Numbered from the stretch's first letter, positions 1,498 through 13,830 are shown. The stretch is DNA of 64,000 nt from an uncultured Enterobacterales bacterium (GCA_964599085.1 CAZRFD010000021.1:7703-71702); one strand, 5' to 3'. Notes: generated by a model from the sequence alone, not told the origin. A program made the numbers and translations.

Positions 1498-3132
1498 GTG
1501 GCCGACATCCTCGTGATCGACGACCAGGACCGGACGCTGCAGCTCTGCCAGCGCGCGATGCCGGAACACCGCTGGCACGGTCCGGCGCGGAGCTGGCGGC
1601 AAGCCAACGACGCGTTGAAGTCGCTCCGCGGACGGGTCGACCTCGCCCTCCTCGACATCCACTTCGACATCCCGGCCGAAGAGCTGCTGGGGCTGCCCGA
1701 CGATCCCGAGCCGCGGGATGTGCGGCGGGCCCAGCGGCGACAGGGCACGGAGATCCTCGCCGCCCTGCGTCGCGGCCGCCCCGACCTGCCGGTCGTGCTG
1801 ATGACCGCGCGGGGTGGGGTCGGGCTGGAGCAGGCGGCCGACCGCCACGGCGCCGAGGAGTACACCTACTTCCTGGACAACGAAGACATCGACGCCCGCA
1901 GCCTGCGGGCCCAGGTCGAGGGGATCCTCCGGGCCCGGCGGGGGACCCTCGCCGACGGGCCGATCTACTGGGGCCGCTCGCTGCAGATGCGGCGGATCCG
2001 CCAGCGGCTGGTCACCCTGGCCCGCGGGCGGCTGCCGGTGATCCTCGGCGGCCCGACGGGCACCGGAAAGAGCCTCGTGGCACGCCACTTCGTCCACCCG
2101 CGCAGCGGCCGGCGCGGCAAGTTCGTGGCGGTGGATCTGGCGACCCTGCCCCGCGATCTCATGGCCGCCCACCTGTTCGGCAGCGTGCGCGGCGCGTACA
2201 CCGGCAGCGTCGCCGATCGGCGGGGTGCCTTCGAGGAAGCCGACGGGGGCACGCTCTTCCTCGACGAGATCGGCAACCTCTCCGAGGAGATGCAGCGCAT
2301 GCTGCTGACCGTGCTCCAGGAGGGGGCCGTCACCCGCCTGGGCGACACCCGGGAGCGGAAGGTCGACGTCAAGCTGGTCGTCGCCACGAACGAGGACCTC
2401 TCGCAGCTCGTCCGAAGGGGGCGCTTCCGAGCCGATCTCTACATGCGGCTGAACCCGGCGTGCAACGTGGCGCTGCCTCCGCTGCGCGAGCGCAGCGGCG
2501 ACCTCGACCGCCTGCTGCTGTTCTGTGCGGAGCGCTCGCTGTCCCAGGACCACGTGCTGGAGCTGGCCAGCGAGTACCGGGACGCCGTCGGGCTGGGCGC
2601 GGGCGACGTCGCGGTGGTGGTGGGGGATGAGGTGCCGGACCCGGTCGCGGGCCGGCTGGTGCTGTACTTCCCCGAGCGGAGCGTGGCGCTGCTGCGGCGC
2701 TACCGATGGCCCGGCAACCTGCGCGAGCTGGCCATGACCGCCGAGAACGCCCTGACCTTCAGCCTCGCCGAAGCCGCGTCGGCCGGCGCGGCCCCCGGGC
2801 GTCGCGGGCGCGCCGCAGAGACGCGCGCCGATGTCGTCCAGGTCCGACCCAAGCTGGTGCGCGACCTGCTGCTCGCCGTCGGGGGGCTGGACGAGGGGCC
2901 CGACGAGGGGGGCTGGCAGGTCGAGGTGCGCGTGCGTCCCAACGCCGGGCTCAACAAGGTGGCCCAGGACGTGGAGCGCCAGTACTTCACGCGGCTCTAC
3001 CTGCAGGAGCGCGGCGACTTCGCGGCCATGGCCACGGTGCTCATGGGAGACCCGGACCACGCCCGGAAGGTGCAGCTCCGCTTCAACCAGCTCGGGCTCA
3101 AGGTCCGAGAGCTCAAGGACCAGCTTGCATAG
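1498..3132 (+). CDS. Sigma54-dependent response regulator (receiver + AAA+ bEBP)
   Basis: GGAGG RBS before GTG. Motifs ILVIDD, Walker A GPTGTGKS, GAYTGS, LFLDEIG, FRADLYMRL and WPGNLREL. Confidence 0.93.
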   Translation: MADILVIDDQDRTLQLCQRAMPEHRWHGPARSWRQANDALKSLRGRVDLALLDIHFDIPAEELLGLPDDPEPRDVRRAQRRQGTEILAALRRGRPDLPVVLMTARGGVGLEQAADRHGAEEYTYFLDNEDIDARSLRAQVEGILRARRGTLADGPIYWGRSLQMRRIRQRLVTLARGRLPVILGGPTGTGKSLVARHFVHPRSGRRGKFVAVDLATLPRDLMAAHLFGSVRGAYTGSVADRRGAFEEADGGTLFLDEIGNLSEEMQRMLLTVLQEGAVTRLGDTRERKVDVKLVVATNEDLSQLVRRGRFRADLYMRLNPACNVALPPLRERSGDLDRLLLFCAERSLSQDHVLELASEYRDAVGLGAGDVAVVVGDEVPDPVAGRLVLYFPERSVALLRRYRWPGNLRELAMTAENALTFSLAEAASAGAAPGRRGRAAETRADVVQVRPKLVRDLLLAVGGLDEGPDEGGWQVEVRVRPNAGLNKVAQDVERQYFTRLYLQERGDFAAMATVLMGDPDHARKVQLRFNQLGLKVRELKDQLA

Positions 3133-5836
3133 TGCATCTCGAGCCGCGCTGGTCGGCCTGCTGCTGACCACGGCCGGGCCGGCGTGGGCGGACCCGCGCG
3201 ACAGCCTGGATCCGGCGGCCCGCCAGCACTACGACACGGCGCTGGCGGCCGAGGCGTCGGGCAGGCCCAAGCGGGCGGCGGCGGCGTGGCGCCTGGTGCT
3301 GGCCAGCGACCCGGCCTTCGAGCCGGCGGTCCTGGGGCTCGGGCGGGCCCAGCTCGCCATGGGGGACGAAGCCGCGGCGGCGAAGACCTGGAGCCGCCTG
3401 TCGACGGACCCCGACGCGGTCGAGGCCCTGGCGAGGCTGGTCGAGGACGAGGACCCCGAGCGGGCGGCGGCGCTCTACCGCCGCCTGACGACGCTGCGCC
3501 TGGGCGACCCCGATCCCCATCGCCTGCTGGCGCGCGTGCTGGCGAGCAGCGAGCCCGAAGCCGCAGCCGACGAGCTGGAGCTGTGGCTCGGCATGGTGTC
3601 GGGCACGACGGAGGGCGAGGGCTACGGCGAGACCATGGTGGCCGTGGCCCAGGCGCTCCGCGATGCCGGGGACGAGGAGCGGGCCCGCGGCCTGCTGGAG
3701 CGCTACCTGCTGGAGTGGCCCGAGGGTCGGCACGCCGACGAGGTCCACGGGCGGCTCGACCGCATGGCGGTGGAGATCGCGGCGCGGGAGCTGGCGGTGG
3801 GTGCGAGCCAGGCGCTCTCGGCCGAGCTTCGGGCCCGGGTGGAGGGGGCGCGCCGCCGGGCCGCCGCCGGCCAGCTCGAGCCCGCGCTGGCCGAGCTGCG
3901 CGAGGTCGTCCAGGCCGCCCCCCGGGCGGCGGAGGCCTGGGGAGCACTCGGCGACGTGCACCGGCTGCTCGGTCGGGTGGACGAAGCGGAACGCGCCTAT
4001 GCCTGGGCTGCGGCGCTGGCCCCGGACGAGGCCACCTGGCACGCCCGCCTCGGCCTGCTGCTGGCCGACCGCTACGGTGGTCGACGCGACCGGGAAGCCG
4101 ACGAGCTGCTCAGCCGGGCGCTCGCCCTGCGGCCCGGCTGGGCCGAGCTGGCCTGGCGCCAGGGAGAAGTGCGGCAGGCGCTGCAGGACTGGGACGGTGC
4201 GGCGGCTGCCTACCGGCAGTACCTCGAACTCGATCCCGACGGTGCCTTCGCCACGGACGCGCGGCAGCGGGTCGCCGACCTGGAGCGAGCCCCTCCCGCG
4301 CCGGCCGCCCTGCCGTCGACCGCGCCTCCGCCGACGGACCTTCCCACTGAAGCCGTCGAGCACTACCGGATCGCCCGCGTCTACTGGGATCAGGGTCAGC
4401 TCGACGAGAGCCGCGCCGAGCTCGAACAGAGCCTGGCCCTGGCGCCGGACTGGACCGCCGGGCTCAACCTGCGGGCGGCCCTGGACATGAGCGCAGGCGA
4501 CGAAGAAGCGGCGGTCGCGGCCTGGCGGCGGTCGCTGGAGCTCGATCCTGCCCAGCCCCTCGTCCTGCTCAACCTCGGGGACCGGCTGCGGAGGGCCGGA
4601 CAGGACGAGCAGGCCCGGGCGCTGCTGCAGGCGGCGGCCGAGGGCGGGGCAGGCGACGCCTGGGTGCTGCTGGCGCAGATGGCCTGGGAGGAGCACCGTC
4701 TGTGGCAGGCGCGGCGTTACCTCGATCACTACGCCGCCACGCCGAGCGTCGGGATGGGACAGGAGGCGGCGTCGGGGCTGCGCCAGCGTGTGGAGCAGCG
4801 GATCCGGCTCGTCCAGGCGGGAGTGGGGGGGCTGTCGGGCCTGTTGGTGGTGGGCGGCCTGGGCCTCGTCCTCCGGCGGCGCTCGGGCAAGCCGCTGTCG
4901 GCGCTGCTGGCGCAGGCACCCGAGGTCAGCCATGACCTCGCGCGGCTGCTCTCCGCGATCCGGCACGAGGTCATCAAGCACAACACGACGCTGCTCGACG
5001 AGGTCGCCGACGCGCTCGACAACGGCGATCACCACGCCGTGCGCTGGGCGGCCATCCAGCTCTTCGGCCCGCGGCGCGGCTCCAGCGAGGGCGTGGTCGC
5101 CCGCTTCGACGGCTACCTGAAGGCGGTCGAGCGCCTGGGCCGCACCCACGGCGTGCGCCTCGATCTCCGGCGGAACGACCCGACGCTCGCGCCGATGTGG
5201 GCGGCCATGCGGCGGCTGCGACGCCTGGAGCCGGCGCTGCGCAGGCCGGAGGGGGCGCGGGCGGCGCTGGCCGAAGAGCTCCGCGAGCTCTCCGTCATCC
5301 TCAACCAGCGCGGCTACCGCCAGCTCGGCGAGCGCGTCCGCGAGATGGGCAGCCTGCGGCTGTCGGCCGACATCCTGGCTGCCGTCGACGAGCGCGTGCG
5401 GGGAGAGCCCGGCTTCGAGGGTGTCGCCCTGCCCGCCCTCGACCTGCGCCTGCCCGAGGGCCCGCCCGTCCCGGTCAAGGTGTTCCGGGGTGACCTGGAC
5501 GACATCGTGGCCAACCTGCTGCGCAACGCCTACCGCGCCGTCGTCGCCGACCTCGACGACGGGCTCCGCCGCGTGGGGATCACGGTGCGGGAGGAGGAGG
5601 ATCCCATCACCGGGCTCGAGCAGGTCCTGATCGAGGTGCGCGACAACGCCGCGGGCCAGCTCACCGACGCGCTCATCCACAGCCGGGGCATCGGCCGCGG
5701 CCTGGGCCTCGTGGTCGACCTCGTCACCCGCCACGACGGGTCGATCCGCGTGGCGACGCTCCAGCCGGGCACGACCGGCTACACCAAGGCCGTCGTCGTC
5801 CAGCTTCCCCGCGCCGACCTGGAGCCCGAGGCATGA
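3125..5836 (+). CDS. TPR-repeat membrane sensor histidine kinase (atypical)
   Basis: Signal peptide, many TPRs, one TM helix and a candidate H-box RHEVIKH. HATPase boxes NLLRNA, DNAAG and GRGLGL. TTG start inferred. Confidence 0.85.
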   Translation: MHSASRAALVGLLLTTAGPAWADPRDSLDPAARQHYDTALAAEASGRPKRAAAAWRLVLASDPAFEPAVLGLGRAQLAMGDEAAAAKTWSRLSTDPDAVEALARLVEDEDPERAAALYRRLTTLRLGDPDPHRLLARVLASSEPEAAADELELWLGMVSGTTEGEGYGETMVAVAQALRDAGDEERARGLLERYLLEWPEGRHADEVHGRLDRMAVEIAARELAVGASQALSAELRARVEGARRRAAAGQLEPALAELREVVQAAPRAAEAWGALGDVHRLLGRVDEAERAYAWAAALAPDEATWHARLGLLLADRYGGRRDREADELLSRALALRPGWAELAWRQGEVRQALQDWDGAAAAYRQYLELDPDGAFATDARQRVADLERAPPAPAALPSTAPPPTDLPTEAVEHYRIARVYWDQGQLDESRAELEQSLALAPDWTAGLNLRAALDMSAGDEEAAVAAWRRSLELDPAQPLVLLNLGDRLRRAGQDEQARALLQAAAEGGAGDAWVLLAQMAWEEHRLWQARRYLDHYAATPSVGMGQEAASGLRQRVEQRIRLVQAGVGGLSGLLVVGGLGLVLRRRSGKPLSALLAQAPEVSHDLARLLSAIRHEVIKHNTTLLDEVADALDNGDHHAVRWAAIQLFGPRRGSSEGVVARFDGYLKAVERLGRTHGVRLDLRRNDPTLAPMWAAMRRLRRLEPALRRPEGARAALAEELRELSVILNQRGYRQLGERVREMGSLRLSADILAAVDERVRGEPGFEGVALPALDLRLPEGPPVPVKVFRGDLDDIVANLLRNAYRAVVADLDDGLRRVGITVREEEDPITGLEQVLIEVRDNAAGQLTDALIHSRGIGRGLGLVVDLVTRHDGSIRVATLQPGTTGYTKAVVVQLPRADLEPEA

Positions 5837-6300
5837 CCGGCCCGCCGACCGCTGTCCGTCCCACCGTGCTCGTCGTCGAGGACGGCCACGAGTACATCAC
5901 GAACCTGCAGCGCTTCCTCTCCGACGAGTTCGCCTTTTCGCGGGCGGGGGACGGTGCGGAGGCGCTCCGGCTGCTCGCTGCCCGGAACTTCGACGCCATC
6001 TTCCTCGACATGCGCTTCGATCGCGCCGACGTCCTGCTGGGCGACCTCGACGCGCTCATCGAGCGCTTCGCCGGCGATCACGACCGGGCGCGGCGCTTCC
6101 TCGAGGACCACCAGGGCACCTACGTGCTCGCGGCGCTGCGGCAGGCCGGCTTCGACCAGCCGGCCCTGTTCAGCCACGACTTCGACGCCGCACCGCGGCG
6201 CTTCCAGAACCTGCAGCGGCGCTACGGCCCGCTCAGCTACCTGGTGGACGCCGCGGGACCGTCCGAGATCCGGGCGGCGCTGCGTGAGCTTGTCGGTTGA
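5833..6300 (+). CDS. Single-domain response regulator (atypical)
   Basis: VLVVED, AGDGAEAL and FDAIFLD motifs. ATGA overlap with the kinase. Confidence 0.85.
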   Translation: MTGPPTAVRPTVLVVEDGHEYITNLQRFLSDEFAFSRAGDGAEALRLLAARNFDAIFLDMRFDRADVLLGDLDALIERFAGDHDRARRFLEDHQGTYVLAALRQAGFDQPALFSHDFDAAPRRFQNLQRRYGPLSYLVDAAGPSEIRAALRELVG

Positions 6301-6539: not shown

Positions 6540-7448
6540 ATGTCCGCATTGCCGAGCCTGTCGCTGTCTCCCGGGTCTCCCTACTCGTCGGGCGGCGGGC
6601 GCAACAAGGGGGCCCGCCGCCCTGCGGGGCACACCGTCCCCGTGCGGGTGGTGAGCCTGCTCGACGACACCGAGGGGCGCTGCTGCCACCTCATCTGCTG
6701 CGAGCAGACCTGGACGGCCGCCGTCGTCGACCCCCTGCCCGAGCTGGCCGGTGAGATCGCCGCGATCATCGCGGCGCGCGGTCTGCGGCTGCGGCTGGTG
6801 TTGCGCACCGGCGTTGCCGGCCCGCAGGCCGAGTCCTCTCGCCGCTACCGCAGCCTCATCAGCGATCTCGGGCTGGACGCCGCACCGGCCGGCGGCGGCC
6901 CGGCCCGCGACGCCACCACGCTGCCCTGGGCGGGCCTGCCGGAGGTCGCGCCCCTGGGCCGGACCTCCGCGGACGGACTCATCGAGGTCCAGGCCGGTCC
7001 CGTCCGGGTGCGGCTGGCTCTGGACGGGCAGGGGGGCCCCCTCGTCACCGTCGGCGGTGCTGCACCGCGGCCACCGGTCGGCGCACGGGTGCGCGGGCTC
7101 CGCGCGGCGCTGGGTGCCTTCCATGTCCGGGCGGTCGCGCTGGGCAGCGGCCAGGGGCTGGCGTGGACTGTCGCCGATCGCGTCTTCTCCGGCACCTGCC
7201 TGCGCGGTGGCAGTCACGGCGGCACGCCCGATGTCCTCCTGCAGCTCCCGGTCGAGACCCTGGTGTACCCGTCGCTCATGTCGCGCGGACGGACCATCTC
7301 CACGGTCGGTGAGGAGCGCCGCATCACGGCCGCCACCCCGACCCCGGCCACCGGCCGAAAGCTGCCCGTGCGGCACCTGCGGACCGCTTCGCAGCCCACC
7401 CGCCATCTGCGCGTCCACGCGGACGCCTCCGGCCACGAAGAGCCCTGA
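6540..7448 (+). CDS. Degenerate MBL-fold protein resembling persulfide dioxygenase (ETHE1 family), metal ligands absent
   Basis: GGAGG RBS. AAVVDP, RVFSG, LPVETLVYP and STVGEERR follow the ETHE1 layout, but the THxHxDH position reads TGVAGPQ. Confidence 0.6.
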   Translation: MSALPSLSLSPGSPYSSGGGRNKGARRPAGHTVPVRVVSLLDDTEGRCCHLICCEQTWTAAVVDPLPELAGEIAAIIAARGLRLRLVLRTGVAGPQAESSRRYRSLISDLGLDAAPAGGGPARDATTLPWAGLPEVAPLGRTSADGLIEVQAGPVRVRLALDGQGGPLVTVGGAAPRPPVGARVRGLRAALGAFHVRAVALGSGQGLAWTVADRVFSGTCLRGGSHGGTPDVLLQLPVETLVYPSLMSRGRTISTVGEERRITAATPTPATGRKLPVRHLRTASQPTRHLRVHADASGHEEP

Positions 7449-7563: not shown

Positions 7564-8172
7564 ATGGCCCGCATCCACCACGGTTCCGGTCTGCTCACCG
7601 TCAAGATCGTCTACTACGGCCCCGGGCTGTCGGGGAAGACCACGAACCTGCAGTGGTTGCACGAGGCCTACCCGCCCGACACGCGCGGCGACCTCGTGAA
7701 GCTGGACACCGAGACCGAGCGCACACTGTTCTTCGACTACTTCCCGGCGTCGCTGGGGACGATCGGTCGGTACCGGGTCAAGGCCAACTTCTTCACGGTG
7801 CCGGGCCAGTCCTTCTACAACGCCACCCGGCGGACGGTCCTGGCAGGTGCCGACGGCATCGTCTTCGTCGCCGACAGCAGCGCCGCGCGGGAAGAAGCCA
7901 ACCTCGTCTCCTTCTCCAACCTCGAGCAGAACCTCGTCTCCGCCGGGCGCGACCTGGACACCCTGCCGCTGGTCATGCAGTACAACAAGCAGGACCTGCC
8001 CGACGCCATGCCCGTGCGGTTGCTGCAGCGGCTGCTCAACAGGCGCCAGGCCCCCGAGGTGCCGGCGGTCGCCACGCGGGGCGAGGGTGTCTGGGAGACC
8101 CAGGCGCTGGTCTTGCAGGGCGTGATGGCACAGCTCCGGGACCACGCGCAGCGGGGTCGTGTCGGTGCCTGA
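7564..8172 (+). CDS. mglA: MglA-family small GTPase (probably a paralog of the motility MglA)
   Basis: KIVYYGPGLSGKTTNL, ERTLFFD, TVPGQ, GADGIVFVADS and NKQD. Confidence 0.93.
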   Translation: MARIHHGSGLLTVKIVYYGPGLSGKTTNLQWLHEAYPPDTRGDLVKLDTETERTLFFDYFPASLGTIGRYRVKANFFTVPGQSFYNATRRTVLAGADGIVFVADSSAAREEANLVSFSNLEQNLVSAGRDLDTLPLVMQYNKQDLPDAMPVRLLQRLLNRRQAPEVPAVATRGEGVWETQALVLQGVMAQLRDHAQRGRVGA

Positions 8173-8935
8173 GATCCTGTCGGGAACGCTGGGGGCGGTG
8201 GGGCTGCCCTCGCTGCTCCAGCTCCTGGAGGGCGAGGGCTTGACCGGACGGCTCCGCGTCGAGGGCGCCGGAGAGCTGCGGCTGGTCGACGGGGTCCCGG
8301 TCGGAGGGGAGTGCGAGGGGCACGAGGGCCGCCTGGCCGCGCTGGAGCTGTTCACCATCGACGCGCGCACCTTCTCCTTCGAGACCGCCCCCGTGGCGAC
8401 CGCGGCGCCGCTCGGAGCGATGATCGAGCTGATCATGGAGGGCTGTCGGCTCGCCGACGAGTGGGCACGCCTGGCGCGTTGCCCGGTGGTTCGCGGACCG
8501 AAGGGGGCGGAGGGCGTCCTCGGGCGACTGCTGGCGGGATGCGCGGCGGGGGTCCCGCTGGAGCGCGCGCGCCGCCGCACTGGGCTCGCGCGCGTCGCCT
8601 GCGTCGACCCGGTCCTCACGGCCGTGGAGAACGGCGACCTGGATCTCGGGGCTGCGCAGGAGCTGCCCGTCGATCTGCTGGCGCCGCAGCAGGCGGCGCC
8701 GACCGCTCTGCGGTCCGCCCCTGCGGCGCCGCCTGTCGACTACTACGAGGCTGTGGAGACCGGGCGGGAGCGCCTGCGCGCCCGGGACTTCGACGCCGCC
8801 GAGCAGGCCTTCCTGCAAGCGCTCAGCGTGCGCCCCGATGACCGGGTGGCCCGCCAGAACCTCACACGTGTCCGCCAGCTCCGCGACGAGCAGGCGGCCA
8901 GCCGAACCGCCACCGAGACGCGGAGTACGTCATGA
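8159..8935 (+). CDS. DUF4388/PATAN-like domain protein with a C-terminal TPR
   Basis: LSGTL..LPSLLQLL..TGRL, FSFE and LIMEGCRLADEW match the DUF4388 pattern. Single TPR at the end. Confidence 0.8.
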   Translation: MSVPEILSGTLGAVGLPSLLQLLEGEGLTGRLRVEGAGELRLVDGVPVGGECEGHEGRLAALELFTIDARTFSFETAPVATAAPLGAMIELIMEGCRLADEWARLARCPVVRGPKGAEGVLGRLLAGCAAGVPLERARRRTGLARVACVDPVLTAVENGDLDLGAAQELPVDLLAPQQAAPTALRSAPAAPPVDYYEAVETGRERLRARDFDAAEQAFLQALSVRPDDRVARQNLTRVRQLRDEQAASRTATETRSTS

Positions 8936-9324
8936 GCCTTGGTCTCCAGGAACAGATGAACGGCCTGCTGCGCGAGCTGGTCGCCGACGCCGGCTACAGC
9001 CTGGCCCTGGTCTGCACCGACGAGGGGCTGCTGGTCGCGAGCTCGACCGACGACTTCGACAGCGAGGAGCTGGCAGGTCTGACGGGCCTCTTTGACGACA
9101 TCGTGCTCCGTGCCCAGCGTGATCTCCACATGGAGCGGGTCGACGAGGTGACGATGCTCGATCCCGGTCGCGGGCGCCTCGTCGTGCGCCCGCTGCGCAT
9201 CGATGGGCCCCAGCGCTTCTTCCTCGTCGTGCGGATCCCCGCGCGCGCCACCTGGCGGCGCAACACCAACCGGCTCGGCCGGACCCTCGTCGGGCTCCTG
9301 CAGCCGGCGGTGCTGGAGGCATGA
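8932..9324 (+). CDS. Roadblock/LC7 (MglB-like) protein
   Basis: 130 aa with LVCTDEGLLVAS..EELAG. Coupled within the MglA operon. Confidence 0.8.
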   Translation: MSLGLQEQMNGLLRELVADAGYSLALVCTDEGLLVASSTDDFDSEELAGLTGLFDDIVLRAQRDLHMERVDEVTMLDPGRGRLVVRPLRIDGPQRFFLVVRIPARATWRRNTNRLGRTLVGLLQPAVLEA

Positions 9325-10172
9325 TGTCCAAGGCCGCCGCCGTCGACTGGGGGCTGGGCGAGCTCGACCTCGACCAGCTCATCGATGCGGGTGTGGTCGA
9401 GCAGGAAGAGGATCCGGGCGTCGTCGACGCGCTGGACCTCGATCCGGAGCTGACCCGGATCACCCGGCGGATCTCCGGGCAGTACGTCGAGGTCATCGCC
9501 ACCTGGGCCCACGCCGTCTTCCGGGGTGAGGGCCGCCGCAACGGGGGCAGCCGCACCACCACCGTCCAGGTGGACAGCGCCGTGCCGGCGCTGCAGCGGC
9601 TCGCCGACGCCACCGGCGACCAGGCGATGATCGCAGCCCTGGACGATCTTGGGCAGCTCGTCGCCCTCGACGACGGCTCGGCCCGTGGCCGGCAGCTCCT
9701 GGTCCCGCGCCTGCGGGACTGGCTGCGGCGCTTCGCGGCGCTGCTGGAAGGCGAGGACGCCGATCGCCTGCTGAAGCTCGTGGAGTTCGATCGCGACAGC
9801 ATGCCCTTGCTGGATCAGCTCGCGAAGGTCCGGGGCGTCGGTCCCCGCCGCATCGAGCGGCTGTACCTCGCCGGCTTGTTCACCGTGGAGTCGCTCGTCG
9901 ACGCCGACCCGGTCGACGTCGCGCAGGTCAGCGGCGTGCCGCGGGGCGTGGCCGCGGCGGTTGTCGATGCGGCGGCCCGCTTCGAGGAGCAGTGGCGCCA
10001 CGACGTCACGCTGGGGCTGCGGCGCCGCACCGACGAGGTCCGCGCGGTGCTGCGGTGGATCGAGACGACCGGGCGGCCCGACGACCAGGTGCTGGCAGCG
10101 GTCAAGGCTTCCATCGACGAGCTGCGCGCGGCGCTGCGTGCGGCCGGTCTCGACACAGAGGAGCAGTCATGA
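9321..10172 (+). CDS. Helix-hairpin-helix domain protein
   Basis: Tandem HhH: LAKVRGVGPRRIERLYLAG..LVDADPVDVAQVSGVPRGVAA. Confidence 0.8.
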   Translation: MMSKAAAVDWGLGELDLDQLIDAGVVEQEEDPGVVDALDLDPELTRITRRISGQYVEVIATWAHAVFRGEGRRNGGSRTTTVQVDSAVPALQRLADATGDQAMIAALDDLGQLVALDDGSARGRQLLVPRLRDWLRRFAALLEGEDADRLLKLVEFDRDSMPLLDQLAKVRGVGPRRIERLYLAGLFTVESLVDADPVDVAQVSGVPRGVAAAVVDAAARFEEQWRHDVTLGLRRRTDEVRAVLRWIETTGRPDDQVLAAVKASIDELRAALRAAGLDTEEQS

Positions 10173-10711
10173 AGCAGTCCGAGCTCATCGCGGCAGTCGC
10201 AGAGCGCAGCGGCCTGTCGAAGGCCGACGTCTCCCGGGTGCTCGTCGCCCTGCGGGAGGTGGTCATGGACGGGATCGCCCATCAGCAGCGGGTGCCGCTG
10301 GTCGGGCTGGGGTCGCTGCAGCCGCGGCAGCTCCGCCCCCGGACCATCCGCAGCATCGGCGACATGCGCAAGCTGCGCATCGGTCAGCGCTGGTCGGTGC
10401 GCTTCCGTCCCTCCTCTCGCCTCCGCGAGATCCTGCAGGGCATGGGCCCGCAGCAGTGGCGTGACCCGGCGCACCAGAGCGCGTGGCGCCTGGCCGAGAC
10501 GCTGGTCGCGGATCTCGACCTGTACCACGGCGCGCGGGCGCCGAGCCTGACCGCCGACGCCGGGGACGCGCTGGTGCACAGCGCCTGCGCTGGCGCCTTC
10601 GGCGGGCTCTGGACCCGCGTCCTGGACAGCTACCAGCAGCGCACCCCTGACGACGTGCGCGTCGCCCAGGACTACCTCGCAGACGCCGCGCGGCAGCGTT
10701 GGGCCGCCTGA
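10169..10711 (+). CDS. HU/IHF-family DNA-binding protein with a C-terminal RomX-like extension
   Basis: MKQSELIAAVAERSGLSKADV..VPLVGLGSL..VRFRPSSRLRE is an HU fold, followed by about 80 extra residues. Confidence 0.85.
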   Translation: MKQSELIAAVAERSGLSKADVSRVLVALREVVMDGIAHQQRVPLVGLGSLQPRQLRPRTIRSIGDMRKLRIGQRWSVRFRPSSRLREILQGMGPQQWRDPAHQSAWRLAETLVADLDLYHGARAPSLTADAGDALVHSACAGAFGGLWTRVLDSYQQRTPDDVRVAQDYLADAARQRWAA

Positions 10712-10746
10712 ACACGATCCTCACCCTCCCCACACCGGAGCAAGCA

Positions 10747-11502
10747 GTGGAAAGCCTCACCCTGTACGAAGCAGACGGCCACAAGAACGTCGTCCTGCCC
10801 GAATTCGACGCCGGCCAGGGCGTGCCCGCCAACCAGCACGTGATCGTGCACGGCGGGGAAGCCATGATCCTCGACCCGGGCGGCCACAAGGTCTACAACC
10901 GCGTGCTTCAGGCAACCCTGAGGGAGGCGCGCGGCTGCAAGCTCAAGCACGTCTTCCTCTCCCACCAGGATCCGGACATCGTCGCGGCGGTCAACGGCTG
11001 GTTGATGACCACGGACGCAGATGCCTGGTGCCCGTCCCTGTGGACCCGCTTCGTGCCCCACTTCGGCCTCGACCGGCTGGTCGCGGATCGCCTGCACGGC
11101 GTGCCCGACGGGGGGATGAAGCTGTCGCTTGGCGGCCTCGATCTGCTGGTCCTGCCCGGGCACTTCATGCACTCCCCGGGCAACCTCCACGTCTACGATC
11201 CGGTCAGCCGGATCCTCTACACCGGCGACCTCGGCGCATCGGTGGGACCGCCCTACCGCGAGGTCAGCGACATGGCGGCCCACATCCAGGCCATGGATGG
11301 CTTCCACCGCCGCTACATCGCCAACAACGCGGTGCTGCGGCTGTGGCTGGACATGGTGCGCCAGCTCGACGTCCAGACCGTCGCCCCGCAGCACGGCGCC
11401 ATGATGGTGGGTCCCGACAAGGTCGCGGCCTTCTTCGACTGGCTGGAAGGGCTGCAGTGCGGCACCGACCTCGCCGGCGACATGTTCCGTCTGCCGACCT
11501 GA
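10747..11502 (+). CDS. MBL-fold di-iron protein, ODP/FprA-N-like
   Basis: ILDPGG, SHQDPD, HFMHSPGN, TGDLG and PQHG motifs, with no flavodoxin domain. GTG start after GGAG. Confidence 0.85.
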   Translation: MESLTLYEADGHKNVVLPEFDAGQGVPANQHVIVHGGEAMILDPGGHKVYNRVLQATLREARGCKLKHVFLSHQDPDIVAAVNGWLMTTDADAWCPSLWTRFVPHFGLDRLVADRLHGVPDGGMKLSLGGLDLLVLPGHFMHSPGNLHVYDPVSRILYTGDLGASVGPPYREVSDMAAHIQAMDGFHRRYIANNAVLRLWLDMVRQLDVQTVAPQHGAMMVGPDKVAAFFDWLEGLQCGTDLAGDMFRLPT

Positions 11503-11599
11503 ACCGCCCGCGGCCGGGCAGAGCCGCGCCCGGTCGTCCTCCCGCCCGGACCCCCGGGTCCACCCACCACCACGACCCCGCGGGGAGGCCCCCCGCCCT

Positions 11600-12484
11600 C
11601 TACCGCAACCCCCGCCGGCGCCGGACGCCGGCTCTGGAGAGAGACATGAGCAACGCCGCCAACCGCGCCCGCCGCATCCAGGACAACCTCGAGCGTCTCG
11701 TCGACGGGACCCCTGACATCACGGGCTGTGCGCTCGTCTCCGACGACGGCCTGATCATCGGCTCGGTGCTCAAGGCCGAAGCTGACGAGGAGAGCCTGGG
11801 TGGCATGGCCTCCATCCTGCTCAGCCTGGGCTCCCGCGTCGGCATGGAGCTCGACCTCGGCGACCTCGAGCAGGTGCTGATCCGCGGCAAGGTGGCCAAC
11901 GCGCTGATGGTCCAGGCCGGCGACGGTGCCCTGCTGCTGGTGCTCATGAGCCGCAAGGCCAAGCTGGGCCTCGTCTTCCTGGACGTCCGCGAGGGGCTGT
12001 TGAGCTGCCCCATGATGAGCGCCCGGGCGACGGCTTCGGTGCGCGAGCGGGCGTGGAGCTTCCGGCGCATGGTGCGGAAGTGGGTCCGCACGGTGTCCGG
12101 CGAGATCCCGCAGATGTCGGCGATGCCCTTGTCGGTGTGGCCGTCGGCGGCCAGCAGGAGCAGCTCCTGCTGGCGCCGGGTCAGCGGCTCGACGTCTTCA
12201 GGGGCCAGGGGCAGCAGCTCGATGGTGATCGTGCGGTACGGGCCGGCGCGGCGACACTCGATGTGCGCGGGGCGGCCCCGGACGTAGCCGCGCTTGGTGC
12301 GTGGAGCGCCGTCGGCCGACAAGCCCTTCCAGCAGGACTCGGTGCAGATCGCGTCGCCCGCTGTGGTCGTCGCGGCGACGGCCTTGTTGCAGGGCTGGCC
12401 CAGGCAGAAGCCCAGCAGCGCCTGTGCGTCATCGGTCTGGGCGTGGATCCTCCCAGCTTCGTCGATGATCAGCGTGACTTGCAT
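11600..12484 (-). CDS. PAS-like + LuxR-type HTH regulator; natural stop apparently missing
   Basis: LTRRQQELLLLAADGHTDKGIADICGISPDTVRTHFRTMRRKL..SRTEAVARA, with a Cys-rich N-terminal domain. Confidence 0.85.
   Translation of the reverse strand: MQVTLIIDEAGRIHAQTDDAQALLGFCLGQPCNKAVAATTTAGDAICTESCWKGLSADGAPRTKRGYVRGRPAHIECRRAGPYRTITIELLPLAPEDVEPLTRRQQELLLLAADGHTDKGIADICGISPDTVRTHFRTMRRKLHARSRTEAVARALIMGQLNSPSRTSRKTRPSLALRLMSTSSRAPSPAWTISALATLPRISTCSRSPRSSSMPTREPRLSRMEAMPPRLSSSASALSTEPMIRPSSETSAQPVMSGVPSTRRSRLSWMRRARLAALLMSLSRAGVRRRRGLR
11646..12287 (+). CDS. Roadblock/LC7 protein; C-terminus aberrant after about 11990
   Basis: ALVSDDGLII..LGDLEQVLIRG..AKLGLVFLDVR, then read-through antisense to the neighbouring gene. 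Confidence 0.8.
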   Translation: MSNAANRARRIQDNLERLVDGTPDITGCALVSDDGLIIGSVLKAEADEESLGGMASILLSLGSRVGMELDLGDLEQVLIRGKVANALMVQAGDGALLLVLMSRKAKLGLVFLDVREGLLSCPMMSARATASVRERAWSFRRMVRKWVRTVSGEIPQMSAMPLSVWPSAASRSSSCWRRVSGSTSSGARGSSSMVIVRYGPARRHSMCAGRPRT

Positions 12485-12726
12485 TGCACCTTCGGTCCAC
12501 GGACGGCGGTGGGTCGAATGTGCCCCAACCTGCACCGACGCTGGTGCTACCGCCTGCGCCAATTGAGTAGCCTTGAGAGGCGGCAGGCACAAGTGGCCTG
12601 CGAGGCGGATCGTCGCAAGCGGCGTCGGCGCGCGCGACCTGCGGGCCCTGCAAGTCACCTCTGGCGCAAGCTCGGAGCGCTGCGATTGTGCGGCGTAGCG
12701 GCCGACAGTCCCCCCCCCCGGGGCGG

Positions 12727-13830
12727 TCAGGACATGGCCGAGACGTCGTCCATTGTCACGATCTTGTAGTTCTCGGCGCAGAACTGGACCATCTTCTCGT
12801 AGGCCTTGATGATCCGGGCGCGCTCTTCGTTGCTGCGCCGGCTGCTCGGGTCCTTGGCGTCGAGGTTGTAGGGCGGTGCCTTCGCCTTGGACTTCGAGGT
12901 GTCGGTCCAGAAGGTGTTGAGCCACGCGTCGGGCCCGCTGCGGGTGAAGTTGTCGTCGTGAATGAGCACGACGACGTGGGGGGGACGCTTGCCGGTGAAC
13001 TGGCCGACGCGCTTCTTGATCTGCGCGTGGGGGTAGCCGGCGTTGGGCGGGTTGCCGTCCTTGAAGCGGTTCCACCAGAGCTGGCCCGACTTCTCTCCGC
13101 CGATCGTCCAGTTGTCGACCGTGATGTCAGCCGGTCTGGCGACGAGCCCGTAGTGCTTCTGGTAGGGGTTGGCGCCGAGGTTCTTTTCTCCGTGGTACCA
13201 GACGACTCCCTTGGCTCCCTGGCTGGCGTAGTACTCGAGGGCCGCCTGCTTGATGTCCTTGTTGTCGTTGGGGGCACCGACGGTGGATGGCGCCCGGTGG
13301 AAGGTGTCCTTGACGAGCTTGAAGCCGCCGGGGCTCTTGTCGTTGAGCTGGCCGGTGCTGAGGTTCAGCGCGTAGTTCTCGAAGCGCTCGATGCGGCTCT
13401 TGAGCTGGTCGCCCTTGACCTCTTCGAAGCGGCTGTCGAAGTAGTTGAACAGCGGGTGGGGCGGCCGCACGTGGTAGGCGATGCCCTGGCTCTTGAGGTT
13501 GGCGATCGCGTCCCGGCGCTGGTTGAGGTACTTCCGGGTCATGGGGCCGGTCATGTAGAAGTCGCCCTGCACGCCGTACTTCTTGAAGATGCTGCACAGC
13601 GAGTTGACCGCGTCGGCGCTGCCGTTGAGGTAGCGGAAATTCTGCACGTTGATGGCGAAGTTGATGTAGGCCCGCGGGCTGCTGCCAGCACCACCCGTAG
13701 GTGGACCGGCGTAGGCCGACGGCACCCACAGCCGGTCCATGAGCGCTGCGGAGGTCGTCGCCACGACGGCGCTGCTGGCGGCGCGGGTCAGGAATGCTCT
13801 GCGGGTGGTCTTGGTGCCGTCATCGGCCAT
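12727..13830 (-). CDS. Tat-exported protein, possible polysaccharide deacetylase-like barrel
   Basis: TRRAFL twin-arginine motif; GVQGDFYMTG and GIAYH segments. Confidence 0.65.
   Translation of the reverse strand: MADDGTKTTRRAFLTRAASSAVVATTSAALMDRLWVPSAYAGPPTGGAGSSPRAYINFAINVQNFRYLNGSADAVNSLCSIFKKYGVQGDFYMTGPMTRKYLNQRRDAIANLKSQGIAYHVRPPHPLFNYFDSRFEEVKGDQLKSRIERFENYALNLSTGQLNDKSPGGFKLVKDTFHRAPSTVGAPNDNKDIKQAALEYYASQGAKGVVWYHGEKNLGANPYQKHYGLVARPADITVDNWTIGGEKSGQLWWNRFKDGNPPNAGYPHAQIKKRVGQFTGKRPPHVVVLIHDDNFTRSGPDAWLNTFWTDTSKSKAKAPPYNLDAKDPSSRRSNEERARIIKAYEKMVQFCAENYKIVTMDDVSAMS

Follow-up and report, generated by a model that had tools for sequence, protein, structure and literature searches.

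MglA, MglB and RomRX form the best-studied small-GTPase polarity system of bacteria, and almost everything known about it comes from one species. Here we describe a cluster of genes around an MglA-type GTPase, found at positions 7564-12287 of a 64,000-nucleotide stretch of DNA with a G+C (guanine plus cytosine) content of ~73% (the window, meaning the whole stretch analysed; GCA_964599085.1, CAZRFD010000021.1:7703-71702, recorded as from an uncultured Enterobacterales bacterium). We lean, by a little, towards reading this cluster as a lineage-specific MglA switch module of one Myxococcota order, cultured Nannocystis included, in which the GTP form of the switch would be coupled to DNA through a fusion of HU with a RomX-family domain and tuned by a sensor of a small ligand or gas. 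The evidence behind this explanation is gene content, conservation, domain homologies and catalytic motifs, from which we infer the contacts between the proteins, the DNA binding, the sensing and the output.

The polarity module of Myxococcus xanthus comprises MglA, MglB, MglC, the RomR-RomX pair and RomY. RomX is an effector that binds only MglA-GTP, with a dissociation constant of 1.7 uM (PMC13408092, in the text available), and helix 1 of RomX makes this contact (bioRxiv 10.1101/2024.02.20.581209, likewise the available part). For receiver domains, RomX uses its helix 3. Group-1 MglAs, which are the motility type, are recognised by an intrinsic Arg beside the switch-I Thr and by TVPGQ as the G3 motif, both of which the Group-2 conservon GTPases lack, and some Group-1 MglAs are coupled to two MglBs, sometimes near PATAN proteins (Wuichet & Sogaard-Andersen 2014, PMC4316618, as far as its accessible text goes). 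The actinobacterial conservons (CvnA-D, Mfp) keep a Roadblock protein and an MglA-family GTPase in an operon with further conserved proteins and are thought to signal to gene expression. ODP is an oxygen-binding di-iron protein of the chemotaxis operons of Treponema denticola and Thermotoga maritima. In Methylacidiphilum, HGbRL is a globin fused to a Roadblock/LC7 domain; an MglA-like GTPase is encoded in the genome, and a relay of ligand state to the Roadblock has been proposed (PMC4476040, available portion). HGbRL was the only case of MglA together with a globin that we found in the literature searched, where no link of HU, HhH or ODP to MglA was found. The main text of the RomX preprint, in the version available, does not contain the words "DNA-binding", "histone" or "nucleoid", and its supplementary tables may list HU fusions.

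The cluster in the window consists of the following genes (lengths in amino acids, aa):

7564..8172, plus strand: mglA, Group-1-type MglA small GTPase, 202 aa
8159..8935, plus strand: PATAN (DUF4388) protein, 258 aa, start at GTG 8159 or GTG 8165, Pfam PF14332
8932..9324, plus strand: rb1, divergent Roadblock-like protein, 130 aa, no Pfam match above threshold
9321..10172, plus strand: HhH protein, 283 aa, Pfam HHH_5 (E 1e-7)
10169..10711, plus strand: HU-RomX fusion, 180 aa, HU/IHF-fold domain at 1-90 and RomX-family helical domain at ~92-180
10699..11502, plus strand: ODP, di-iron protein of metallo-beta-lactamase fold, 267 aa, PF19583; start uncertain, TTG 10699 being the first start codon in frame
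11646..12287, plus strand: rb2, Roadblock/LC7 protein, PF03259, conserved part ending near 11993

All seven open reading frames (ORFs) lie on one strand, as an earlier reading made from the sequence alone (the sequence-only reading) had described, and its observation that starts and stops of the first five genes overlap also holds: ATGA junctions stand at 8932, 9321 and 10169, and the DUF4388 gene begins, at its GTG, before mglA has reached its stop.

Like the M. xanthus module, this cluster combines a Group-1 MglA carrying the Arg and TVPGQ with two Roadblock-fold partners, one of them putative, and a RomX-family domain that has the helix-1 motif. Unlike that module, it is encoded by a single operon, its RomX is joined to HU instead of being the free partner of a RomR receiver, an HhH protein and a PATAN-TPR protein belong to the core, a gas-sensor-like gene is usual, and rb2 is nearer to CvnB and archaeal Roadblocks than to MglB. 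The conservons resemble it in pairing a Roadblock with an MglA-family GTPase in an operon of conserved genes; they differ in having a Group-2 GTPase, a conserved kinase-like gene and a CvnC-type protein, where the cluster has a Group-1 GTPase and neither of the other two. HGbRL, a heme globin coupled to a Roadblock, sets a precedent for globin-Roadblock signalling, whereas here the globin, ODP or third sensor candidate (famX) is a separate single-domain protein linked with two Roadblocks, MglA, HU-RomX and HhH. The ODP of the window is of the same family as the chemotaxis ODPs (E 6.5e-57 to 6qrq) and, like them, a single-domain protein that would signal via a partner, but it stands among the genes of an MglA module, not with a chemoreceptor/CheA array.

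The gene set recurs in related genomes. Full-length homologues of the HhH protein were present in 6 of the 40 relatives searched, and all six loci have the same gene set. Scanning one genome per species with an alignment of the HU fusion (A2) gave 25 loci, 21 of which match over most of the fusion and one of which (L028) matches in part; all of these matches are in Myxococcota-type metagenome-assembled genomes (MAGs), although some record titles name other taxa. At class level, 35 of 151 genomes gave matches (E <= 1e-15), or 23 of the 82 genomes of good quality, and the full-length matches were mostly within the window's order. After removal of duplicates, 37 distinct loci stand in Myxococcota genomes of the window's class, which bears out the proposal that the cluster is conserved as a functional unit. 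Because the gene set occurs at 37 loci, and because the only ODP-family match and the only Pfam Roadblock match of the window's genome both fall in the cluster, the arrangement is not a product of chance.

A six-gene core of MglA, PATAN(DUF4388)-TPR protein, two Roadblocks, HhH protein and HU fusion is found at 27 of the 37 loci (the full clusters), counting L008, which is cut by a contig end and has its mglA on another contig. The usual order is mglA, PATAN, (rb2), rb1, hhh, hu; in L024, L025, L042, L049 and L051 the order is rearranged and the content kept. Reduced loci retain MglA and the HU fusion, in the forms mglA-hu (L009, L012), protoglobin-mglA-hu (L046) and mglA-hhh-hu (L045, L053, L056), so that MglA and HU-RomX are common to every locus with an mglA gene. 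At 33 of the 37 loci the HhH gene immediately precedes the HU fusion; the exceptions are L009, L012, L046 and L024. Left out of the 37 were HU variants lacking MglA (L050, L052, L057) and partial or weak matches (L030-L032). The L052 variant (9588-10184) has a degenerate RomX-like domain and adjoins a long ORF with kinase-like motifs. On the 7.5 kb contig of L054 the cluster is present twice, in tandem.

Over residues 2-193, the MglA of the window matches that of M. xanthus in its solved form (6h17) at E 1.4e-57, and over the full length it matches the PDB MglAs of M. xanthus and Thermus thermophilus (6h17, 5ymx, 3t12) at E 1e-57 to 4e-55. It has the P-loop GPGLSGKTT and the NKxD motif as NKQD. 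All 20 cluster MglAs in the alignment share, unchanged, the P-loop, ERTLFFDYFP with the intrinsic Arg, TVPGQ and NKxD; the switch Arg (ERTLFFD) and Gln (TVPGQ) picked out by the sequence-only reading are thus both present throughout, and the cluster MglA falls in Group 1.

By tblastn, the window's genome holds two MglA genes. The second, 59% identical to the first, lies ~5 kb before the window (L001; G000:C21, 1912-3625) and nests inside the radiation of the cluster MglAs in the tree. The 349-aa protein that precedes it has no Pfam/NCBIfam match, and its resemblance to the PATAN protein is confined to a TPR-like hairpin (E 0.037). Motifs of protein-kinase type, read by eye, are present in an adjoining ORF of 1029 aa. 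In the same genome, Pfam recognises no Roadblock other than rb2, and the C-domain profile A8 described below has a single RomX-like match, the HU fusion. Searches of two relatives, G002 and G012, gave a single MglA and a single Roadblock match per genome, and all of these belong to the cluster. A further relative (G070) has a closed genome of 9.4 Mb, in which the sole Roadblock and sole RomX-like matches are in the cluster and one further, distant MglA-like gene occurs. Neither canonical mglBA nor stand-alone RomX, with the profile used, was among the matches in the window's genome and in G070. The cluster itself differs from the canonical arrangement, a single MglB beside mglA with RomR/RomX elsewhere, in having two Roadblock genes and a RomX fused to HU in the operon. 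The sequence-only reading had taken the locus for a second Mgl module beside canonical mglBA; we rejected this idea, as no canonical mglBA was found in the window's genome, G002, G012 or G070 and the second MglA nests within the cluster radiation. The window's genome (G000) also has 10 PilT-family genes above the curated cut-off, several in tandem pairs, and a role in pilus-based motility is therefore possible.

The HU fusion is the part of the cluster that would join the GTPase to DNA. Its HU domain matches Pfam PF00216 (Bac_DNA_binding) at E 4e-17, and in the AlphaFold2 model (predicted local distance difference test, pLDDT, 94) an HU fold is followed by a helical domain, residues 100-178 being all-helical. 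A Foldseek search with the whole model returned HU/IHF-family (DNABII) chains only, a result that speaks for the HU part. The five best matches, Anabaena HU among them, had template-modelling (TM) scores (target) of 0.84-0.89 and root-mean-square deviations of 1.2-2.2 A, with Anabaena HU at 0.87-0.89. The HU arm is Arg-rich, and Arg58 and Arg61 are kept in the family.

The C-terminal domain belongs to no Pfam/NCBIfam family, and a word-limited homologue search with it gave 11 matches, all HU fusions. A profile of 28 C-domains (A8) had RomX (8ZNA) as its top PDB match (E 0.0026), on RomX helix 1, where the alignment pairs AWRLAETLVGDLDLYH with RomX KAMRLARAIASDISLYN. Run against 1.84 billion representatives, A8 matched 148 proteins; ~85 are HU fusions, and the rest include stand-alone proteins of 94-127 aa and long multidomain proteins. 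Seven of the stand-alone matches (A11) match RomX 8ZNA at E 5.6e-22 over residues 3-82, and A8 matches A11 in hhalign at 99.2% (E 6.6e-20, 76 columns). The homology of the HU C-domain to RomX therefore runs through intermediates, and through them profile comparison establishes the C-terminal half of the fusion as a RomX-family domain. In the alignment, RomX R11 falls on HU residue 107, an Arg that hardly varies, and D19 on residue 115, an Asp without exception. In RomX itself, combining R11A with R14A abolishes both MglA-GTP binding and nucleotide exchange, and exchange is also abolished by D19A (bioRxiv 10.1101/2024.02.20.581209, available text).

Natural fusions of the same two partners exist in P0027 and P0048 (805 and 914 aa), which have an N-terminal MglA-type GTPase, 45% identical to the window MglA, and C-terminal RomX-like domains. 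P0100 combines a Zn-ribbon, a receiver (REC) and a RomX-like domain, and the structural look-alikes of the C-domain in the Atlas are REC+Zn-ribbon proteins and ~90-aa Myxococcota proteins; the RomX preprint, in its available part, lists REC+Zn-ribbon and small stand-alone architectures for the RomX fold. The cluster domain is thus like RomX (8ZNA) and the RomX-fold response regulators in its homologous helical domain and in the company of REC+Zn-ribbon (P0100) and ~95-aa stand-alone (A11) forms, and unlike those response regulators in having HU as its fusion partner. A complex prediction of MglA (A6) with GTP, Mg and HU-RomX (A7), run without controls, scored 0.23 against a mark of 0.32 and speaks neither for nor against a contact. 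The DNA-binding outputs that had been proposed for the locus fit with an HU that would be tied to MglA by its fused RomX-family domain. In Brocadiaceae-labelled MAGs (L030, 8740-9279, and L031), ~180-aa proteins with another N-terminus match the RomX-like C-domain only, with no MglA nearby.

Beside HU, the HhH protein brings a second fold of DNA-binding type. Its architecture is a helical N-terminal domain, an (HhH)2 at residues 166-219 and a helical tail (alignments A1 and A9). The N-terminal domain has no Pfam/NCBIfam match, and its profile matches only designed helical (repeat) proteins in the PDB. The DUF4388 protein matches PF14332 at E 7e-8 over residues 8-103, and consists of PATAN, a middle domain, a Pro-rich linker and one C-terminal TPR-like hairpin (alignment A10, 17 orthologues). 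It had been called a DUF4388-TPR protein; the DUF4388 part stands, and the TPR part comes down to this single hairpin. In cyanobacteria, the motor of the type IV pilus is a target of PATAN-domain regulators (bioRxiv 10.1101/2021.06.11.447907, in the available text).

The two Roadblock proteins claimed for the locus differ in how clearly they can be recognised. For rb2 the assignment is secure, with a match to PF03259 at E 1.3e-15 (57.3 bits, cut-off 23) and matches in the PDB to 7f8m (E 5e-18) and CvnB5 3leq (E 8e-8), so that CvnB or archaeal Roadblocks are closer solved relatives than MglB. For rb1, nothing in Pfam was above threshold (Robl_LC7 E 0.053); its profile matches solved Robl_LC7 7f8f weakly (E 0.021), and hhalign places it in register with rb2 at E 0.003 with a probability of only 10%. 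The rb1 family has at least 149 proteins, and UniRef labels the Nannocystis orthologues "Roadblock/LAMTOR2 domain-containing protein", a name only. Orthologues occur in cultured Nannocystis radixulma, N. pusilla and Nannocystis sp. SCPEA4, and experiments are therefore feasible; WP_271997117.1 and WP_224192413.1 are two such rb1 orthologues from Nannocystis.

The window copy of rb2 departs from its relatives after FLDVRE and does not have their C-terminal helix and stop (alignment A4, junction analysis). In place of the final ~10 conserved residues it has a tail of ~95 aa (11990-12287) that is antisense to a LuxR/GerE-type gene. That gene, on the minus strand at 11960-12700 (GerE E 3e-15), converges on rb2, and at their junction near 11993 no stop codon ends either of them; the junction looks like one left by a deletion or insertion. 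A Logan contig from the likely source sample, a microbial mat metagenome, spans 10853-13500 with 0 differences; a second assembler thus built the junction alike, though from the same data. No RNA data set was listed as containing the stretch, and the single RNA run from that sample gave no sequence on it.

The ODP was part of the arrangement from which the sequence-only reading had derived an O2-sensor-like input. It matches PF19583 at E 3.7e-63 (213 bits) and the solved ODPs 6qrq and 6qnm at E 6.5e-57 and 5.9e-56, and the HQDPD, GH, GD and PQHGA stretches are identical in the alignment with 6qrq. It is the sole ODP-family match in the 8.2 Mb genome of the window and lies inside the 4.7 kb cluster. 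However, only 5 of the 27 full clusters carry ODP (the window, L008, L010, L020, L027), at three positions: between hu and rb2, after rb2, or before mglA. The ODP is therefore not a defining part of the system or a core gene; its place is a variable sensor slot.

Other small proteins occupy this slot elsewhere. Single-domain protoglobins of ~180 aa are found in 11 of the 27 full clusters and in the minimal locus L046; the two that were tested match PF11563 at E 4e-33 and 3e-24, the proximal His is invariant, and a conserved C-terminal tail extends past the globin domain. In L046 the protoglobin (45-785) is split over two frames, by a frameshift or an assembly error. The one protoglobin of the window's genome lies outside the cluster, in a long open frame. 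The third type, famX (155 aa), is present in 7 clusters, alone in 5 and with a protoglobin in 2. It has no Pfam/NCBIfam match and no PDB match by sequence. Its AlphaFold2 model (pLDDT 70, predicted TM score 0.69) matches the V4R sensor domains of PoxR, MopR and DmpR, Bet3/TRAPPC3 and H-NOX with probability 1.0 and TM (query) of 0.60-0.72; the exception among the listed structural matches is the vinyl-4-reductase protein 2oso (TM (query) 0.50). The sensor types are interspersed on the MglA tree, with ODP in at least two separate places. A gas-sensor-like input is thus plausible, since a protoglobin or a V4R/H-NOX-fold protein takes the place of ODP in other loci.

Upstream of the cluster, a 302-aa ORF (6540-7448) fills the gap before mglA. 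This candidate gene has no Pfam/NCBIfam match; its only counterpart, a weak one, stands at the corresponding place in L010 (29% identity, E 1.7e-6). Further upstream on the same strand lie a 1001-aa TPR and HATPase_c protein (2831-5836) and a REC-like ORF of 155 aa (5833-6300), which overlap at stop and start. The HATPase_c/kinase-like and REC-like genes gave no match by tblastn in the other loci mapped with them (L008-L031).

We suggest the following course of events. MglA would cycle between GDP and GTP forms, and rb1 and rb2 may control the cycle as a regulator pair of the MglB/MglC kind. The RomX-family domain of HU-RomX would bind MglA-GTP, and the HU domain would couple the active GTPase to DNA; in Myxococcus the corresponding place is taken by RomR, the polar landmark. 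The adjacent and translationally coupled HhH protein may act with HU-RomX, both HhH and HU presumably binding DNA, and the PATAN-TPR protein could be a further adaptor or effector. A small single-domain ligand-binding protein, be it ODP, protoglobin or the V4R/H-NOX-fold protein, would set the switch by O2, NO or redox state. As its output, the module may organise the nucleoid or control gene expression, or it may act on polarity and type IV pilus motility and use the nucleoid as a sink or matrix. A bolder version, in which HU-RomX and HhH load MglA-GTP on the nucleoid and interchangeable gas sensors let O2 or NO status reorganise the chromosome or use it as a polarity matrix, is one that we hold tentatively and would not bet on. 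In that version the orphan "sensor single-domain globins", as well as ODP outside chemotaxis, would gain a signalling partner.

Several other explanations were weighed. The cluster could be the front-rear polarity and motility module of this lineage, equivalent to MglA/MglB/MglC/RomX and serving type IV pili, with the sensors giving an aerotaxis-like control of reversals and with HU and HhH as a passive anchor or sink that has no effect on DNA or transcription. In the genomes searched, one of them closed, neither canonical mglBA nor, with the profile used, a stand-alone RomX turned up, and the cluster must therefore account for whatever MglA does there; the 10 PilT-family genes, the action of PATAN regulators on the cyanobacterial pilus motor (bioRxiv 10.1101/2021.06.11.447907) and the motility type of Group-1 MglAs (PMC4316618), both as far as the available texts go, point the same way. 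However, two separate DNA-binding folds, HU and (HhH)2, are present in nearly all loci, and HU partners the putative MglA-binding domain in ~85 of the 148 profile matches, which is hard to explain if DNA is irrelevant; nor was any pilus or gliding gene seen in the mapped flanks. We therefore regard this explanation as possible but on the unlikely side. Transcription control of the conservon type (CvnA-D/Mfp) would make the upstream TPR-HATPase_c and REC-like proteins a kinase arm that feeds a Roadblock-GTPase pair with a DNA-binding component. Both genes do lie upstream on the same strand, and CvnB5 3leq, not MglB, is among the solved relatives of rb2, but the GTPase has the Group-1 Arg and TVPGQ that Group-2 conservon GTPases lack, and no cluster protein has a Pfam match of the CvnC/DUF742 type. 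As the kinase-like neighbour is not conserved in the loci mapped with it (L008-L031), we rejected this reading and give it hardly any weight.

ODP-family proteins and globins can have enzymatic or scavenging roles. This general knowledge lends itself to another explanation, in which ODP and the other sensor candidates are neighbours by chance or through shared regulation, for instance oxidative-stress enzymes, with no signalling link to MglA; in keeping with it, the position of the sensor gene varies and 6 of the 27 full clusters are without a recognised sensor. Against it, three unrelated small ligand-binding folds recur in the same-strand run at 21 of the 27 full clusters and in the three-gene L046, the protoglobins have their conserved C-terminal tail, and the single ODP gene of an 8.2 Mb genome sits in a 4.7 kb cluster. 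We rejected chance adjacency of ODP, and the explanation as a whole appears improbable to us.

Other findings weigh against the DNA-coupled, sensor-tuned MglA switch that we favour. The clusters without a recognised sensor mean that sensing is not obligatory, and the sensor genes have no fixed neighbour among rb2, mglA and hu. The fold of famX is equally that of Bet3/TRAPPC3, so famX could be a structural partner of the Roadblocks instead of a sensor, and confidence in its model (pLDDT 70) is only moderate. The Roadblock identity of rb1 is weak, and the window copy of rb2, having lost the conserved C-terminal helix, may be impaired. The arm tip of HU and IHF carries an intercalating Pro, and the residue at this site (position 63) is Ile or Val in the family; the equivalent of RomX R14 is a nearly invariant Glu (residue 110). 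The interfaces with MglA and with DNA may therefore differ from the models. Finally, the loci do not count as independent, since the genomes that hold them are related.

If the favoured reading of a DNA-coupled MglA switch is correct, a whole myxobacterial order, cultured members included, wires the same GTPase differently. In these bacteria the RomX domain is fused to a nucleoid protein and not partnered with a polar landmark, and the operon usually contains a small ligand-binding protein of one of three unrelated kinds, of which two belong to oxygen-binding families. A Ras-like switch would then be linked to DNA and to gas sensing. The cluster would also offer a genetic handle on single-domain sensor globins and ODP.

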